From assembly GCF_055900595.2 (NCBI RefSeq), contig NZ_CM148325.1: 64,000 bases of DNA. One strand, written 5' to 3'. The notes under the pieces were generated by a model. It saw nothing but the letters and a program-made list of their open reading frames with translations, had not been told where the DNA came from and did no database searches. Position 1 is the first letter of the stretch. Every line of letters begins with the position of its first letter. Of this stretch, positions 36,014 to 53,536 are shown piece after piece. A program made the position numbers and the translations under genes.

Positions 36014-36349
36014 ATGGATAAAGAACGCATCATTCAGGAATTTGTGCCCGGCAAACAGGTCACACTGGCGCATCTCATCGCGCATCCCGGCGAGGAACTG
36101 GCGAAGAAAATCGGCGTTCCGGATGCGGGCGCAATCGGCATTATGACGCTAACACCCGGCGAAACGGCGATGATCGCCGGTGATTTAGCGCTGAAAGCCG
36201 CCGATGTGCATATCGGTTTTCTCGACCGTTTTAGCGGCGCGCTGGTGATTTATGGCTCGGTGGGTGCAGTAGAAGAAGCGTTATCACAAACCGTCAGTGG
36301 TTTAGGTCGCTTATTAAATTATACGCTGTGTGAAATGACCAAAAGTTAA
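36014..36349 (+). CDS. eutS: Ethanolamine microcompartment shell protein (BMC domain)
   Basis: 111 aa from [32 protein letters not shown]... Confidence 0.92.
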
Positions 36350-36361
36350 TACGAGGCATTC

Positions 36362-36841
36362 ATGAAACGAATTGCGTTTGTGGGTACCGTCGGGGCAGGA
36401 AAAACAACGTTATTTAATGCGTTGCAGGGGAATTATACCCTCGCCAGAAAAACACAGGCCGTGGAATTTAATGATAAGGGCGATATTGATACGCCGGGTG
36501 AATATTTTAGCCATCCCCGCTGGTATCACGCCTTAATTACCACGCTACAGGATGTGGACATGCTGATTTATGTCCACGGCGCGAATGACCCGGAAAGCCG
36601 ATTGCCTGCCGGGTTGCTGGATATTGGTGCCAGCAAACGGCAAATCGCCGTCATCAGTAAAACGGACATGCCGGATGCTGACGTCGCAGCAACGCGAAAG
36701 TTATTGCTTGAAACTGGTTTTGAAGAGCCGATTTTCGAGCTAAACAGCCACGACCCGCAAAGCGTGCAGCAACTGGTGAATTATCTGGCATCTCTCACCG
36801 AACAGGAGGAAGCAGGTGAAAAAACTCATCACAGCGAATGA
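36362..36841 (+). CDS. eutP: Ethanolamine utilization GTPase/acetate kinase-like protein (EutP/PduV family)
   Basis: 159 aa with Walker A GTVGAGKTT. Confidence 0.92.
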   Translation: MKRIAFVGTVGAGKTTLFNALQGNYTLARKTQAVEFNDKGDIDTPGEYFSHPRWYHALITTLQDVDMLIYVHGANDPESRLPAGLLDIGASKRQIAVISKTDMPDADVAATRKLLLETGFEEPIFELNSHDPQSVQQLVNYLASLTEQEEAGEKTHHSE

Positions 36842-37517
36842 TATTCGTGAAGCACATGCGCGCGGCGAACAGGCAATGTCTGTGGTTCTGCGCGCCAGCA
36901 TTATTACCCCGGAAGCCCGCGAAGTGGCGGACTTGTTGGGGTTTACCATCACCGAATGCACTGAATCGACGCCAGTAGCGGCATCTGTTCCCGTCAGCGT
37001 GCCTGCCGATAAAACTGAAAGCCAGCGTATCCGCGAAACCATCATCGCCCAGCTGCCGGAAGGCCAGTTTACCGAAAGCCTGGTCGCGCAGCTGATGGAA
37101 AAAGTGATGAAGGAAAAACAGTCGCTGGAGCAGGGGGCAATGCAGCCGAGTTTTAAATCGGTGACCGGCAAAGGCGGCATCAAAGTTATTGATGGCAGCA
37201 GCGTGAAGTTTGGTCGTTTCGATGGCGCGGAACCGCACTGCGTAGGCTTGACTGATCTCGTGACCGGAGACGACGGCAGCAGCATGGCCGCCGGTTTTAT
37301 GCAGTGGGAGAACGCCTTCTTCCCGTGGACCCTGAACTACGACGAAATCGACATGGTACTGGAAGGGGAGCTTCATGTTCGCCATGAAGGCGAAACCATG
37401 ATCGCTAAAGCAGGCGACGTGATGTTTATCCCGAAAGGTTCCAGCATCGAATTTGGTACGACATCCAGTGTGAAATTCCTGTATGTCGCCTGGCCGGCTA
37501 ACTGGCAATCCCTATGA
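36816..37517 (+). CDS. eutQ: Ethanolamine utilization cupin-domain protein
   Basis: 233 aa; start overlaps the eutP 3' end by 26 nt. Confidence 0.92.
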   Translation: MKKLITANDIREAHARGEQAMSVVLRASIITPEAREVADLLGFTITECTESTPVAASVPVSVPADKTESQRIRETIIAQLPEGQFTESLVAQLMEKVMKEKQSLEQGAMQPSFKSVTGKGGIKVIDGSSVKFGRFDGAEPHCVGLTDLVTGDDGSSMAAGFMQWENAFFPWTLNYDEIDMVLEGELHVRHEGETMIAKAGDVMFIPKGSSIEFGTTSSVKFLYVAWPANWQSL

Positions 37518-44837: not shown

Positions 44838-46237
44838 ACACTCGCCAGCTACTGAGCGTCGGTATCGATATCGGCACTACCACCACCCAGGTGATCTTCT
44901 CCCACCTGGAGCTGGTTAACCGTGCGGCGGTGTCGCAGGTGCCGCGCTACGAATTCATCAAACGCGAAATTAGCTGGCAAAGCCCGGTGTTCTTTACCCC
45001 TGTCGATAAACTGGGCGGTTTAAAAGAAGCGGAACTGAAAACCTTAATCCTCGAGCAATATCAGGCTGCGGGCATTGCGCCGGAAAGCGTTGATTCTGGT
45101 GCCATCATCATCACCGGTGAAAGCGCGAAAACCCGCAATGCTCGCCCGGCGGTGATGACGCTCTCCCAGTCGCTTGGCGATTTTGTCGTCGCCAGCGCCG
45201 GGCCGCATCTCGAATCCGTGATCGCCGGTCACGGTGCCGGGGCGCAAACCCTTTCTGAACAACGGCTGTGTCGGGTACTGAATATCGATATTGGCGGTGG
45301 CACCGCGAACTACGCTTTGTTCGATGCCGGAAAAATCAGCGGCACCGCTTGCCTCAACGTCGGCGGTCGCCTGCTGGAAACCGACAGCCAGGGGCGCGTG
45401 GTTTACGCTCATAAACCGGGGCAGATGATAGTGGATGAGTGCTTCGGTGCAGGCACTGACGCCCGTTCGCTGACTGGCGCGCAGCTGGTGCAGGTTACCC
45501 GGCGGATGGCGGAACTGATTGTCGAAGTGATTGACGGAACGCTCTCGCCGCTCGCGCAGGCATTGATGCAAACCGGTTTGCTGCCCGCAGGTGTTACGCC
45601 AGAAATCATTACGCTTTCTGGCGGCGTGGGCGAATGTTATCGCCACCAGCCCGCTGACCCGTTCTGTTTTGCCGATATTGGCCCGCTTCTGGCAACGGCG
45701 CTGCATGACCATCCGCGCCTGCGTGAGATGAACGTGCAGTTTCCGGCGCAAACCGTACGCGCCACGGTGATTGGCGCGGGCGCACATACCCTTTCGCTCT
45801 CTGGCAGCACAATCTGGCTGGAGGGGGTACAACTGCCGCTGCGCAATTTGCCGGTGGCGATCCCAATTGATGAAACGGATCTGGTGAGTGCCTGGCAACA
45901 AGCGCTAATTCAGCTGGATCTTTGCCCCAAAACTGACGCGTACGTGCTGGCGCTTCCCGCCTCGCTGCCTGTGCGTTACGCCGCGGTACTGACGGTCATC
46001 AACGCGCTGGTCGATTTCGTCGCGCGTTTTCCGAATCCGCATCCCCTGCTGGTGGTGGCCGGGCAGGATTTTGGTAAAGCTCTGGGCATGTTGTTGCGCC
46101 CACAGCTACAACAACTCCCGTTGGCAGTCATTGACGAAGTGATTGTCCGCGCGGGGGACTATATCGACATTGGTACGCCTCTTTTTGGCGGATCGGTTGT
46201 GCCGGTGACGGTGAAATCACTCGCATTTCCTTCCTGA
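44834..46237 (+). CDS. eutA: Ethanolamine ammonia-lyase reactivating factor
   Basis: 467 aa; 4-nt overlap with eutH. Confidence 0.93.
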   Translation: MNTRQLLSVGIDIGTTTTQVIFSHLELVNRAAVSQVPRYEFIKREISWQSPVFFTPVDKLGGLKEAELKTLILEQYQAAGIAPESVDSGAIIITGESAKTRNARPAVMTLSQSLGDFVVASAGPHLESVIAGHGAGAQTLSEQRLCRVLNIDIGGGTANYALFDAGKISGTACLNVGGRLLETDSQGRVVYAHKPGQMIVDECFGAGTDARSLTGAQLVQVTRRMAELIVEVIDGTLSPLAQALMQTGLLPAGVTPEIITLSGGVGECYRHQPADPFCFADIGPLLATALHDHPRLREMNVQFPAQTVRATVIGAGAHTLSLSGSTIWLEGVQLPLRNLPVAIPIDETDLVSAWQQALIQLDLCPKTDAYVLALPASLPVRYAAVLTVINALVDFVARFPNPHPLLVVAGQDFGKALGMLLRPQLQQLPLAVIDEVIVRAGDYIDIGTPLFGGSVVPVTVKSLAFPS

Positions 46238-46248
46238 GGGAACGACTT

Positions 46249-47610
46249 ATGAAACTAAAGACCACATTGTTCGGCAATGTATATCAGTTTAAGGATGTAA
46301 AAGAGGTGCTGGCTAAAGCCAACGAACTGCGTTCGGGGGATGTGCTGGCGGGCGTTGCAGCGGCAAGTTCACAGGAGCGCGTGGCGGCAAAGCAGGTGTT
46401 GTCGGAAATGACCGTAGCGGACATCCGCAATAATCCGGTGATTGCCTATGAAGATGACTGCGTGACGCGGCTGATTCAGGACGACGTTAACGAAACGGCC
46501 TACAACCAGATTAAAAACTGGAGCATCAGCGAACTGCGTGAGTATGTGCTGAGTGATGAAACCAGCGTGGACGACATTGCCTTTACCCGCAAAGGGCTGA
46601 CCTCGGAAGTGGTCGCGGCGGTAGCGAAGATTTGCTCCAACGCGGACCTGATCTACGGCGCGAAGAAAATGCCGATTATCAAAAAGGCCAATACTACCAT
46701 CGGTATTCCGGGCACCTTTAGCGCCCGTTTGCAGCCGAACGATACCCGTGACGACGTGCAGAGTATCGCCGCGCAAATCTACGAAGGGCTTTCCTTCGGG
46801 GTAGGCGATGCGGTGATCGGCGTTAACCCGGTGACTGACGACGTGGAAAACTTAAGCCGCGTGCTGGATACCATCTATGGCGTGATCGACAAATTCAACA
46901 TTCCGACCCAGGGCTGCGTGCTGGCGCACGTTACTACCCAGATTGAAGCGATCCGTCGCGGCGCGCCGGGCGGGCTGATTTTCCAGAGCATCTGCGGCAG
47001 CGAAAAAGGGCTGAAAGAATTTGGCGTGGAGCTGGCGATGCTCGATGAAGCACGCGCAGTGGGCGCAGAGTTTAACCGTATCGCCGGGGAAAACTGCCTC
47101 TACTTCGAAACCGGGCAAGGTTCTGCGCTATCGGCGGGCGCTAACTTCGGCGCAGATCAGGTAACGATGGAAGCGCGTAACTACGGGCTGGCACGTCATT
47201 ACGATCCGTTTATCGTCAACACCGTAGTGGGCTTTATTGGGCCAGAGTATCTCTACAACGACCGGCAGATTATCCGTGCGGGCTTAGAAGATCACTTTAT
47301 GGGCAAACTGAGCGGCATTTCTATGGGCTGTGACTGCTGCTACACCAACCACGCTGACGCTGACCAGAACCTCAACGAAAACCTGATGATCCTGCTCGCC
47401 ACCGCAGGCTGCAACTACATCATGGGGATGCCGCTGGGTGATGACATCATGCTCAACTACCAGACCACCGCATTCCACGATACCGCCACTGTGCGTCAGT
47501 TACTCAACCTGCGCCCGTCACCGGAGTTTGAACGCTGGCTGGAAAGCATGGGCATTATGGCAAACGGTCGCCTGACCAAACGGGCGGGCGATCCGTCACT
47601 GTTCTTCTGA
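46249..47610 (+). CDS. eutB: Ethanolamine ammonia-lyase large (heavy) subunit
   Basis: 453 aa MKLKTTLFGNVYQFKDVKEVLAKANELRSGD...; directly follows eutA after an 11-nt spacer. Confidence 0.95.
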   Translation: MKLKTTLFGNVYQFKDVKEVLAKANELRSGDVLAGVAAASSQERVAAKQVLSEMTVADIRNNPVIAYEDDCVTRLIQDDVNETAYNQIKNWSISELREYVLSDETSVDDIAFTRKGLTSEVVAAVAKICSNADLIYGAKKMPIIKKANTTIGIPGTFSARLQPNDTRDDVQSIAAQIYEGLSFGVGDAVIGVNPVTDDVENLSRVLDTIYGVIDKFNIPTQGCVLAHVTTQIEAIRRGAPGGLIFQSICGSEKGLKEFGVELAMLDEARAVGAEFNRIAGENCLYFETGQGSALSAGANFGADQVTMEARNYGLARHYDPFIVNTVVGFIGPEYLYNDRQIIRAGLEDHFMGKLSGISMGCDCCYTNHADADQNLNENLMILLATAGCNYIMGMPLGDDIMLNYQTTAFHDTATVRQLLNLRPSPEFERWLESMGIMANGRLTKRAGDPSLFF

Positions 47611-49745: not shown

Positions 49746-50798
49746 ATGAAAAAGACCCGTACAGCTAATTTGCACCATCTTTATCATGAACCCTTACCCG
49801 AAAACCTGAAGCTAACGCCGAAGGTCGAAGTGGATAATGTTCATCAACGGCAAACAACGGATGTCTATGAACATGCTTTGACGATTACCGCCTGGCAGCA
49901 GATTTACGATCAGCTGCATCCGGGCAAATTTCATGGTGAATTTACGGAAATTCTGCTCGATGATATTCAGGTTTTCCGTGAATACACGGGGCTGGCGCTG
50001 CGTCAGTCGTGCCTGGTCTGGCCGAATTCGTTCTGGTTTGGCATTCCGGCGACGCGCGGTGAGCAGGGATTTATCGGTTCGCAATGTCTGGGAAGCGCAG
50101 AAATAGCGACGCGCCCTGGTGGAACCGAGTTTGAATTAAGTACGCCGGACGATTACACGATCCTTGGCGTGGTGCTTTCTGAAGATGTCATCACCCGGCA
50201 GGCTAACTTTTTGCATAACCCGGAAAGGGTGCTGCATATGTTACGTAACCAGTCGGCGCTGGAAGTGAAAGAGCAGCATAAAGCCGCGCTGTGGGGCTTT
50301 GTCCAACAGGCTCTGGCGACATTTTGCGAGAACCCGGAAAATCTCCATCAGCCTGCAGTGCGAAAAGTGCTGGGGGATAATTTGCTAATGGCGATGGGGG
50401 CGATGCTGGAAGAAGCGCAGCCAATGGTGACGGTGGAAAGCATCAGTCATCAGAGTTACCGTCGGTTGCTTTCCCGCGCCCGTGAATATGTGCTGGAAAA
50501 CATGTCCGAACCGGTGACGGTGCTGGACTTGTGTAATCAACTGCACGTCAGTCGCCGCACCTTGCAAAACGCATTTCACGCTATTTTGGGCATTGGCCCG
50601 AATGCGTGGCTGAAACGCATTCGCCTGAACGCCGTGCGCCGTGAACTGATTAGCCCGTGGTCGCAAAGTATGACGGTAAAAGACGCCGCCATGCAGTGGG
50701 GATTCTGGCATCTTGGGCAGTTTGCCACGGATTATCAGCAATTGTTTGCAGAAAAGCCTTCACTGACGCTGCATCAGCGGATGCAGGAACTGGAGTGA
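49746..50798 (+). CDS. eutR: AraC-family transcriptional activator of the eut operon
   Basis: 350 aa with a C-terminal AraC-type HTH. Confidence 0.93.
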
Positions 50799-50874
50799 GG
50801 GTGAGGGCCGGATGAGGATGGTGTTTGATCCGGTCCATAGTGAAGTTACAAATTACGTTGAATTGCTATGTATT

Positions 50875-51192
50875 TTATTGCCCAACGGGATAGGCGATAA
50901 ACAAACCGACAATTGTCAAAATACACGCCAGCAGGAATACCAACATACAATTTACGCGCTTTCGCGAAATTTTAAATAAATAGCAAAATAGTGTTGTTAC
51001 CACGATCACTACCGGGATAGTCATAAAATTAATAACGATGAGTGCTATCAATCCAAAACTTGCTCCTCCACCGTGGGGAATAAAAATGTGTTCTTCAAAA
51101 TAAACTTCTATAGCAAATGCCAGCACACATCCCAGAAAACTCATATCCAGATGAGGGTGCCATTTACTTTCTTTATGTGATGTGTCTGACAT
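50875..51192 (-). CDS. Hypothetical small membrane protein (105 aa, about 3 predicted TM helices)
   Basis: ATG preceded by a GGGAG SD; hydrophobic segments FLGCVLAFAIEVYF, FGLIALIVINFMTIPVVIVVTTLFCYLF, CMLVFLLACILTIVGLFIAYPV; 40 nt downstream of and co-oriented with the 420-aa gene. Confidence 0.6.
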   Translation of the reverse strand: MSDTSHKESKWHPHLDMSFLGCVLAFAIEVYFEEHIFIPHGGGASFGLIALIVINFMTIPVVIVVTTLFCYLFKISRKRVNCMLVFLLACILTIVGLFIAYPVGQ

Positions 51193-51232
51193 TCTTAAAT
51201 GCTCCCGTGAGCAAACTGGCGCAAAATAATTT

Positions 51233-52495
51233 CTAAGATTGCTGATAAGACGTCGCTGTTGTCCGGCACTCCGGGCAGATAAACGCGTAAATTATCCCTT
51301 CGCCGTATTGTTCAATATCGGCATAATCCAGTTGCGCAAGAAACATCATTGTGTGGGAACATTGCGGACAGAGAGGATATTCCGCGTCCTGAATCCAGGT
51401 TGGATGCCCGCCAAGTTGCGAGAAAGAGACAGGTAAAAATGGGTCTGCGGCAAATAACGGTGACCTAAGGTTTCCCTGTCTCATGCTGTTTACAGGGAGT
51501 CGACGCCATTCCGATACATCATCCGGCAGCCAGGCAGGCGGGATATTTTTTGCAGACAAATGAGCGTTACCCTTTGAGTCCATGTAGCCGAAAATGGTGC
51601 TGTAGGCGGTGCAACATTCGCAAGTCACGACGCGAAAACTGCCGTTATCGCTAAGACCCGTTGCCTTCAGGTCAACGTCGAAAAGATTTGTTAGTGGCAA
51701 TGCGCAATTTGGACAGGTATCGTTGCGTTCATCAACAACACGCAAAGCTTCGCAAGACCCGGTGCTTTTCATCTCCAGATGAAAACATTGAGGAAAATAG
51801 AGATTACGCCTTTGATCTTCAGCGGTTAACTCCCAACCGGCCTCATGCGCATATTCTTCAGGCTCGATGTAAAGGGAGCTGCGCCACGGCGGTGGGCTAT
51901 TGCGCCAGTGGGCAAAACGTTCAACGACAACGTCATCCCCAATCCATGCCAGACATTGCAGAATACAATTTCTGTTTTCTGCATCATCCTCAACCCGTTC
52001 TAACAGCCTGTCGCGTACATCTGTGGGGGCGCGGTGGAAAGGCATATAAGAATCATTGTCCAAATCATCGTAAGAGATCCATTCTCTGAAATAGGCATTC
52101 AGATTCGCCTGGGTAAATGCCGCCAGACAAAGGCAAATCTCCTGAGCGAGCTTATATTCACCAGATGCAAAGCGTTCTGTGGCGTAATCAGCCATCAGCT
52201 GCGCTTGATCGGTGGTCAGTTGTTGATACAGGGCATCTGTGGGAACGGGGCAGGGAGTCCAGTCGATTAACGCATCGAATTTCCGCGGTTGGTGAATTAA
52301 TTTCAGCATGACAACCGGATCGCTTAACCCTGCAAACGCATTCACGATCTTTTTGTTTTTCTTGATATATTCGTCGTGCTCACGTTGCTGTTGGGCCTGC
52401 TCGCAGGGCATGCAGTATCCGTTAGTACGCGCTGCGGTTTCCGGAAGAATGGTTGATATACAAGCGGGGCTTTTACAGGGAATACGGTGAGTCAT
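51233..52495 (-). CDS. Hypothetical cysteine-rich protein (420 aa) with zinc-ribbon motifs and a DUF1963/YwqG-like C-terminal region
   Basis: ATG with an AAGGAG SD 8 nt upstream; N-terminal C-x4-C...C-x2-C (CKSPAC...CMPC), internal CPNC...CECC, and C-terminal GGHPTWIQDAEYPLCPQCSHTMMFLAQLDYADIEQYGEGIIYAFICPEC. Family assignment is from memory, not a search. Confidence 0.7.
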   Translation of the reverse strand: MTHRIPCKSPACISTILPETAARTNGYCMPCEQAQQQREHDEYIKKNKKIVNAFAGLSDPVVMLKLIHQPRKFDALIDWTPCPVPTDALYQQLTTDQAQLMADYATERFASGEYKLAQEICLCLAAFTQANLNAYFREWISYDDLDNDSYMPFHRAPTDVRDRLLERVEDDAENRNCILQCLAWIGDDVVVERFAHWRNSPPPWRSSLYIEPEEYAHEAGWELTAEDQRRNLYFPQCFHLEMKSTGSCEALRVVDERNDTCPNCALPLTNLFDVDLKATGLSDNGSFRVVTCECCTAYSTIFGYMDSKGNAHLSAKNIPPAWLPDDVSEWRRLPVNSMRQGNLRSPLFAADPFLPVSFSQLGGHPTWIQDAEYPLCPQCSHTMMFLAQLDYADIEQYGEGIIYAFICPECRTTATSYQQS

Positions 52496-52633
52496 AGAGG
52501 CGCTCCTTGCCTGAGGATATTAAGTCGAAAGAGATTATTATTAGATATTAGGGTGTCACTATGGCACACAAATTAAAACAGCATTAATTTTATGCCACCA
52601 ACCGAGGGTTATTTTTCTTTTATTTTCATGATA

Positions 52634-53536
<903 letters not shown>

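Follow-up and report, generated by a model that had tools for sequence, protein, structure and literature searches.

The window analyzed here is a 64,000-nucleotide (nt) stretch of contig NZ_CM148325.1 (NCBI RefSeq assembly GCF_055900595.2). Between eutR and hemF, it carries an open reading frame (ORF) for a 420-amino-acid (aa) protein that belongs to the TYPP superfamily and combines a putative N-terminal zinc finger, an alpha-helical domain and a two-repeat TYPP domain. Our favored reading, held tentatively and at somewhat less than an even chance, is that this protein is a soluble, cytoplasmic, non-enzymatic binder of other proteins, most likely of the immunity type and directed against a polymorphic toxin domain. 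Burroughs and Aravind united TSR4, YwqG/DUF1963, PDCD2L and PDCD2 as the TYPP superfamily in 2014, and defined it by two repeats of ancient duplicate origin, the GGxP motif, a glutamine that hardly varies at the base of a pocket and, present only sporadically, two CxxC motifs in each repeat (PMC4275035). We found all four features in the 420-aa protein, with CxxC pairs in both repeats.

The frame reported in a preliminary description of this DNA is intact on the minus strand and encodes exactly 420 aa. Its product is 100% identical to RefSeq WP_032303504.1, which is named "DUF1963 domain-containing protein". Compared with diverged E. coli copies, the ratio of nonsynonymous to synonymous substitution rates (dN/dS) is 0.22-0.33, and therefore this is a real coding gene. 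The gene order in the window is eutA-B-C-L-K-R on the plus strand, followed on the minus strand by a 105-aa ORF, the 420-aa ORF, hemF and amiA, with a 138-nt AT-rich gap between hemF and the 420-aa gene. Consensus scans across 50700-52800 found no consensus promoters or terminators. The features of the gene and its product are as follows.

51233..52495, minus strand: 420-aa ORF, stop codon included, for predicted zinc finger, helical domain and TYPP domain (ORF list; AlphaFold2 model)
52503..52508, minus strand: Shine-Dalgarno sequence AAGGAG, 7 nt 5' of the ATG (sequence inspection)
52355..52495, minus strand: residues 1-47, predicted C4 zinc finger C7-x4-C12-x15-C28-x2-C31, continued by a long helix (cysteine invariance; AlphaFold2 model)
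51854..52354, minus strand: residues 48-214, HEAT/ARM-like all-alpha domain in which the motif NRNxxLxALAWIGDxxVV is conserved
51461..51853, minus strand: residues 215-345, TYPP repeat 1, with AGWE strand, inserted hairpins and predicted zinc ribbon C261/C264...C292/C295
51611..51715, minus strand: predicted zinc ribbon of repeat 1, CPNC ... CECC, residues 261-295 (cysteine conservation)
51236..51460, minus strand: residues 346-420, TYPP repeat 2, with GGHP (362-365), predicted ribbon C376/C379...C407/C410, pocket Q388 and conserved TATxYQQ tail (Pfam, hhalign, invariance)
51266..51370, minus strand: predicted zinc ribbon of repeat 2, CPQC ... CPEC, residues 376-410

We aligned 56 homologues of 38-95% identity and built an AlphaFold2 model from this family alignment (predicted local distance difference test score 94.4; predicted template modeling score 0.88). 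The model has three parts: a zinc knuckle with a long helix (residues 1-47), an all-alpha region (approximately 48-214) and an all-beta region (approximately 215-420). The protein contains 20 cysteines, and the three CxxC-type sets noticed in the preliminary description are present and conserved throughout the family. C7, C12, C28 and C31 of the N-terminal set are all invariant; the middle set has C264, C292 and C295 in every sequence and C261 at 90% conservation or more; and in the C-terminal set C376 and C407 never vary and the conservation of C379 is 90% or higher, with C410 present in the query yet variable in some members. Because the cysteines are kept across sequences this divergent, their conservation is not due to chance. 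We infer from this invariance, together with a weak similarity to the zinc ribbons of ZPR1 and NrdR, that the three Cys4 sets probably bind zinc. Invariance also extends to G362, G363, P365, W367 and Q388 of the C-terminal block and to further polar residues that include S359, Y373 and E222. The GGxP motif of repeat 1 is degenerate and reads AGWE, in which G220 and W221 are invariant.

The C-terminal block had been likened to DUF1963/YwqG on the basis of its letters. The block is present as originally read, and an HMMER search with Pfam supports the resemblance: DUF1963 (PF09234) matches residues 359-406 weakly (independent E-value 5.8e-5; model positions 1-51 of 216), and no well-characterized enzyme family is assigned. 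The same model matches all 56 family members at E<=0.1 and 27 of them at E<=1e-3. When aligned to canonical DUF1963 paralogues with hhalign, only the last 52 residues matched, and they did so onto the canonical repeat 1 (probability 92.7%, E 4e-7). This alignment pairs Q388, which lies in an FLAQ motif and is invariant in 56 of 56 sequences, with the glutamine of the canonical FLAQ. The middle of the protein, previously thought to resemble nothing recognizable, proved to be repeat 1 of the TYPP domain. Self-comparison showed that residues 260-305 (CPNC...LTNLFD...TCECC) are collinear with residues 375-420 (CPQC...MFLAQLD...ICPEC; E 1.4e-4), and the all-beta region has the two homologous repeats and stacked sheets of the YwqG fold (PDB 1PV5), with a structural match that spans 148 of the 206 residues from 215 to 420. 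Therefore, the "middle" and "C-terminal" ribbons correspond to each other, one in each repeat of a single TYPP domain.

The N-terminal region was also said to match nothing. This holds for Pfam, which assigns no family to the finger (residues 1-47) and whose zf-dskA_traR model matches neither the query (E<=10) nor the 56 members (E<=0.1), but not for the literature, where a layout of finger plus helical domain has been described (PMC4275035). In the AlphaFold2 model, residues 1-47 form two short strands and helices at 18-23 and 29-47, and the all-alpha region that follows resembles an alpha-solenoid. The N-terminal module was used in an exhaustive HMMER search, which recovered 582 representative clusters, and the best 150 of these 582 matches all correspond to the ~420-aa architecture or its fragments. 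One natural variant, P0235, has no N-terminal finger whatsoever. Many family entries (P0030, P0033-P0041, P0160 and others) begin at Met29 ("MPC...") and so lose the first cysteine pair of the finger, probably through a systematic start-codon miscall. In a Paenibacillus metagenome-assembled genome, P0104 (667 aa; locus L086) has DUF2625 placed N-terminally of a complete family member, either as a true fusion or as a read-through of two adjacent genes, and was given no weight here. Elsewhere, nothing meaningful came from searching PDB sequences with either the protein or the family profile, an NCBIfam scan gave only a sub-threshold match to the FmdB zinc ribbon, and a PHROGs scan gave none. Because the protein has no hydrophobic segment by Kyte-Doolittle analysis and no enzyme family match in Pfam, NCBIfam or the PDB, it is predicted to be cytoplasmic and is probably not an enzyme.

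The suggestion that this architecture might be new does not survive comparison with the literature. Burroughs and Aravind described a bacterial TYPP "family two" in which most members have, at the N-terminus, an alpha-helical domain that is uncharacterized, and several also have an N-terminal C4 finger, which they called dksA/traR type (PMC4275035). The 420-aa protein fits this family by its described architecture rather than by the paper's member list. Family two shares with it the GGxP motif, the conserved glutamine, CxxC pairs in both repeats, the N-terminal helical domain and, in several members, the C4 finger; its bacterial spread is likewise narrow and patchy, and its function has been addressed only computationally. 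Our results differ in that the finger's dksA/traR assignment is not recovered with Pfam, and that the immunity-gene arrays described below are not mentioned in that paper. B. subtilis YwqG, the canonical DUF1963 protein of known structure (PDB 1PV5), differs in several ways. YwqG has ~250 aa and lacks the zinc finger, the helical domain and the CxxC pairs; sequence identity is 12%; the 420-aa protein covers 51 of the 216 Pfam model positions and is thus not a full-length DUF1963 match; and the unit that matches is the last repeat in the 420-aa protein but the first in YwqG.

Among eukaryotic relatives, PDCD2 and Tsr4 have been shown experimentally to be chaperones of ribosomal protein uS5, and binding requires their TYPP motifs (PMC7736825). 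The statement that the family has no established biochemical function therefore stands for all bacterial members and is only partly true of the superfamily as a whole. PDCD2, PDCD2L and Tsr4 share with the 420-aa protein a two-repeat TYPP domain with GGxP, CxxC-like motifs and the glutamine, as well as an additional zinc-binding module (MYND in PDCD2), which lies between the repeats in PDCD2 and, as a putative finger, at the N-terminus here. Pfam PDCD2_C gave no significant match (1 of 56 members, E 0.077). PDCD2 and Tsr4 act by binding an unstructured segment of their client, and by analogy we propose client binding for the 420-aa protein as well.

We next consider the distribution and gene neighborhoods of the family. 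Across 100,044 species representatives, with one genome per species, there are ~97 carriers, and 80 loci were kept for analysis. Forty-eight of these loci are from Paenibacillaceae and three from Enterobacteriaceae; the others include further Bacillota (Lysinibacillus, Sporosarcina, Solibacillus, Clostridium), Planctomycetota, Verrucomicrobiota, Chitinimonas, Shewanella and Steroidobacter. The idea of a partner gene conserved throughout the family was rejected, as the best neighbor cluster occurs in 17 of the 80 loci and resembles a generic ABC ATPase. At 19 of the 80 loci, however, the family member lies with at least one gene of a recurring array: canonical DUF1963, Ank+DUF4274, DUF6138, SMI1_KNR4 or one of two uncharacterized families. 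Array genes are often co-directional and separated by gaps of 19-20 nt. By Pfam annotation, the Lysinibacillus odysseyi locus (L099) contains Ank, Cys_rich_CPCC, two DUF1963, SUFU, SMI1_KNR4/SUKH_5/SUKH_6, DUF6138, Imm10 and DUF6881 genes across 20 kb. In Shewanella electrica, SMI1_KNR4 is directly upstream of the family member and DUF1963 and DUF3916 are nearby, and arrays in Paenibacillus and Solibacillus carry Ank+DUF4274, DUF6138, DMP19, SMI1_KNR4 and DUF1963. The Shewanella locus also has a CAP12-PCTIR TIR gene beside the family member.

Such arrays resemble the heterogeneous polyimmunity loci described by Zhang et al. (2012), which are tight, co-directional, strain-variable and usually toxin-free, and for which SUKH, SuFu, Imm-Ank, Imm10 and HEAT-repeat proteins are listed as immunity proteins (PMC3482391). 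The immunity proteins of these loci are small-to-medium cytoplasmic binders. About one in four loci of the TYPP family lies within such an array, and the family has a HEAT-like domain, but it is not among the listed Imm families, and most of its members, including the copy in the window, are solitary. Two observations on the arrays may be recorded here. In four Bacillota genera (L021, L025, L030, L035, L050, L065 and others), there is a recurring block of uncharacterized genes: upstream of the family member they encode an acidic protein of 224 aa (12 loci) and a protein of 123 aa (7 loci), and downstream of it Ank+DUF4274 (7 loci) and a DUF6138 protein of 555 aa (10 loci). The L. odysseyi array begins (L099, 1-1244) with genes for a KTI12/AAA_33+HD protein and an RNA ligase, which may be an array-associated RNA-repair pair. 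Literature searches on DUF2625, DUF3916, DUF6881/2, DUF4274, DUF6138 and ypfK yielded nothing useful.

Within E. coli, the 420-aa gene is carried by 28 of 5,426 complete genomes and is missing from the other 5,398 (99.5%). Non-carriers have eutR and hemF ~5 bp apart, with the interval 50802-52633 cleanly absent, and one copy, in strain EC42405, is a pseudogene. The gene is found directly downstream of hemF in Klebsiella, Yokenella, Superficieibacter, the uncultured enterobacterium UBA3516 and E. albertii. We considered recent acquisition of an island in E. coli and rejected it, because the same hemF-adjacent site is used across these enterobacteria and identity to K-12 is a uniform 95-96% along the whole window. 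The shared position instead indicates ancestral presence of the gene followed by repeated loss.

The eutR-hemF gap is a variable hotspot, the contents of which differ between enteropathogenic E. coli (EPEC) E2348/69 and strain 2013C-4282. E2348/69 carries a gene of the 420-aa family, E2348C_RS14080, and its gap also contains a SNF2 helicase gene of ZorD/DpdE-like type and a hypothetical gene for 223 aa. The helicase gene lies between hemF and the TYPP gene (interval L097, 17313-21430), encodes 1149 aa resembling ZorD, DpdE and DrmD, and is convergent with the 223-aa gene; the protein scores below all NCBIfam cut-offs. This pair may be an uncharacterized defense module in the same hotspot. In 2013C-4282, the interval from the TYPP gene to eutR (L095, 1363-3657) contains a 221-aa hypothetical gene whose product is 57% identical to that of the 223-aa gene of E2348/69, a Tli3-family immunity gene of the type VI secretion system (Pfam 1.2e-15) and two Sel1-repeat genes. 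The group has the appearance of an orphan cluster of immunity genes, and no toxin is visible there.

How might the 420-aa protein act if it is an immunity-type binder? The ribbons at 261-295 and 376-410 would provide one structural zinc ribbon for each TYPP repeat and stabilize two stacked beta-sheets. The invariant GGHP and Q388 would line a pocket that grips an extended segment of the partner, as the pocket is needed to grip the unstructured client in the eukaryotic relatives, and the HEAT-like solenoid and N-terminal finger would add binding surface. Action would then be stoichiometric, with the partner clamped between the TYPP pocket and the helical solenoid. Both client binding and the nature of the client are argued by analogy with PDCD2 and Tsr4; the most likely target would be an incoming or self-made polymorphic toxin domain, and the E. 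coli copy would be an orphan retained in a variable hotspot of conflict genes. We propose a toxin domain as the partner for three reasons: a quarter of the loci, and one E. coli strain, show the array context; the family is patchily distributed and often lost; and its dN/dS is relaxed. Patchy spread, absence from 99.5% of E. coli, a pseudogene and dN/dS of 0.22-0.33 are typical of the evolution of immunity genes.

Several findings weigh against an immunity role. No recognizable immunity or toxin genes lie nearby in the window or in 61 of the 80 loci, and no toxin domain was seen beside any member in the annotated neighborhoods. The 149 immediate neighbors of family members are mostly assorted housekeeping genes. 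The synteny with hemF across enterobacterial genera looks like that of a vertically inherited chromosomal gene and not of a mobile immunity cassette, and tblastn against plasmids and phages found no copies of the gene. In the searched literature, we found no DUF1963 or TYPP protein called an immunity protein, so that the link between DUF1963 and immunity is our own contextual inference.

A client-specific chaperone is the main rival, and a serious one, since family copies are mostly solitary, no cognate toxin was seen and the enterobacterial copy is stably syntenic. Such a dedicated chaperone or adaptor would hold an unstructured segment of an endogenous housekeeping or secreted protein until assembly, as PDCD2 and Tsr4 do for uS5, and would play no part in inter-bacterial conflict. 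The only experimentally characterized TYPP proteins are client-specific chaperones (PMC7736825), a chaperone-like role in protein-protein interaction was predicted for the TYPP domain and favored in the original computational analysis (PMC4275035), and the neighbors are ordinary at most loci, with a stable hemF-adjacent position in Enterobacteriaceae. However, a housekeeping chaperone is not expected to occur in just ~97 of 100,044 species, nor should 99.5% of E. coli be able to do without it; no client is indicated by a conserved neighbor (the most frequent one occurs at 17 of 80 loci); and the N-terminal extension of uS5 that Tsr4 and PDCD2 bind is specific to eukaryotes (PMC7736825). We judge a chaperone of this kind to be rather unlikely, though its chance is far from negligible. 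The protein could also be an accessory of an anti-phage or other conflict island, serving as a sensor or adaptor rather than in toxin immunity. The ZorD/DpdE-like helicase in the E2348/69 gap and the TIR gene in Shewanella would suit such a role, yet PADLOC models match neither the 420-aa nor the 105-aa protein at E<=1, and defense-like neighbors are sporadic and differ between loci, with the SNF2 protein itself below every NCBIfam cut-off. This is improbable.

Two further proposals take parts of the protein as their starting point, and we give each only a slim chance. Burroughs and Aravind assigned a dksA/traR finger to several family-two members (PMC4275035), and the AlphaFold2 model has a long charged helix after the finger; a transcription-associated regulator might thus contact RNA polymerase through a DksA/TraR-type finger and sense a ligand or partner through its TYPP domain. 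The failure of zf-dskA_traR to match the query or any of the 56 members argues against this, and the finger is not the functional core, because natural variants such as P0235 do without it. Alternatively, the conserved pocket glutamine could serve an enzyme, for example one that modifies peptides. This was raised as a "more radical" possibility in the same paper, and the invariance of Q388 and of the polar residues S359, Y373 and E222 would be in keeping with it, but no known catalytic motif or enzyme fold was matched, the authors themselves saw little enzymological precedent (PMC4275035), and PDCD2 works by binding (PMC7736825). Least credible of all, and very improbable, is a functional tie to the neighbors in the window, namely heme synthesis (hemF), a cell-wall amidase (amiA) or ethanolamine utilization (eut). 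The gene is co-directional with amiA-hemF and is found immediately downstream of hemF in five enterobacterial genera. Yet hemF accounts for 3 of the 149 immediate neighbors, all three enterobacterial, with no hemF-adjacent member outside Enterobacteriaceae; amiA-hemF and eut persist in nearly all E. coli in the absence of the 420-aa gene; and the AT-rich gap separates it from hemF. We rejected a link to hemF, amiA or eut on this distribution.

The 420-aa gene shares its segment with a second small gene, and both are listed here.

50802..52633, no strand assigned: 1,832-bp segment with both genes (420-aa and 105-aa), between eutR and hemF (blastn matches to the K-12-like locus L093 stop at 50801 and resume at 52634)
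50875..51192, minus strand: 105-aa membrane protein with 2-3 hydrophobic spans, co-directional and 40 nt downstream of the 420-aa gene (ORF; Kyte-Doolittle)

The 105-aa protein is 50% identical to the product of a 109-aa Klebsiella gene that carries PF26378 YpfK, and a Pfam scan of the 105-aa protein itself gave no match. Its gene has a dN/dS of 0.2-0.24, which reflects purifying selection. We rejected it as an obligatory partner of the 420-aa protein, because it is absent in Yokenella, E. coli 2013C-4282 and all non-enterobacterial loci; it is a lineage-specific neighbor.

Comparison with the K-12-like genome also bears on the source strain. Every aligned block of 37192-64000 is 94.7-96.3% identical to L093, and eutR and hemF of the window are 92-94% identical to those of almost all E. 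coli. Since identity to the K-12-like genome is just 94.7-96.3%, the strain appears to represent a deep-branching Escherichia lineage, although its RefSeq label is E. coli. At 46237-46249, eutA is followed directly by eutB, where L093 (9148-15771) has the CPZ-55 prophage remnant (intZ, yffL-yffS); thus the eut operon is uninterrupted in the source strain because the remnant is not inserted at this junction. Beyond the window, ~16 kb from hemF, L093 encodes the WGR-domain protein YfeS (36146-36880). Fusions of WGR to YwqG-family TYPP domains were noted by Burroughs and Aravind (PMC4275035).

As a sequence feature, the 420-aa protein is ordinary: RefSeq already lists an identical protein with DUF1963 in its name, and this arrangement of domains was set out in 2014. 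The family is known and computationally described, and its link to immunity is suggested by gene context. The repeated placement of family members with canonical YwqG genes in SUKH/SuFu/Imm arrays leads to a concrete toxin-immunity hypothesis, which we did not find in the searched literature. More broadly, it is possible, though we hold it doubtful, that bacterial TYPP proteins, comprising this zinc-finger/HEAT/TYPP family and the canonical YwqG/DUF1963 proteins of its arrays, form an unrecognized class of polymorphic-toxin immunity proteins that clamp an extended segment in the glutamine pocket. PDCD2 and TSR4 would then descend from binders of bacterial conflict systems, an origin of the kind already proposed for SUKH and SuFu. 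The authors of the PDCD2 study explicitly asked what the bacterial TYPP proteins do (PMC7736825), and the presence of a family member in the genetically tractable EPEC strain E2348/69 makes the family's function directly testable in E. coli.

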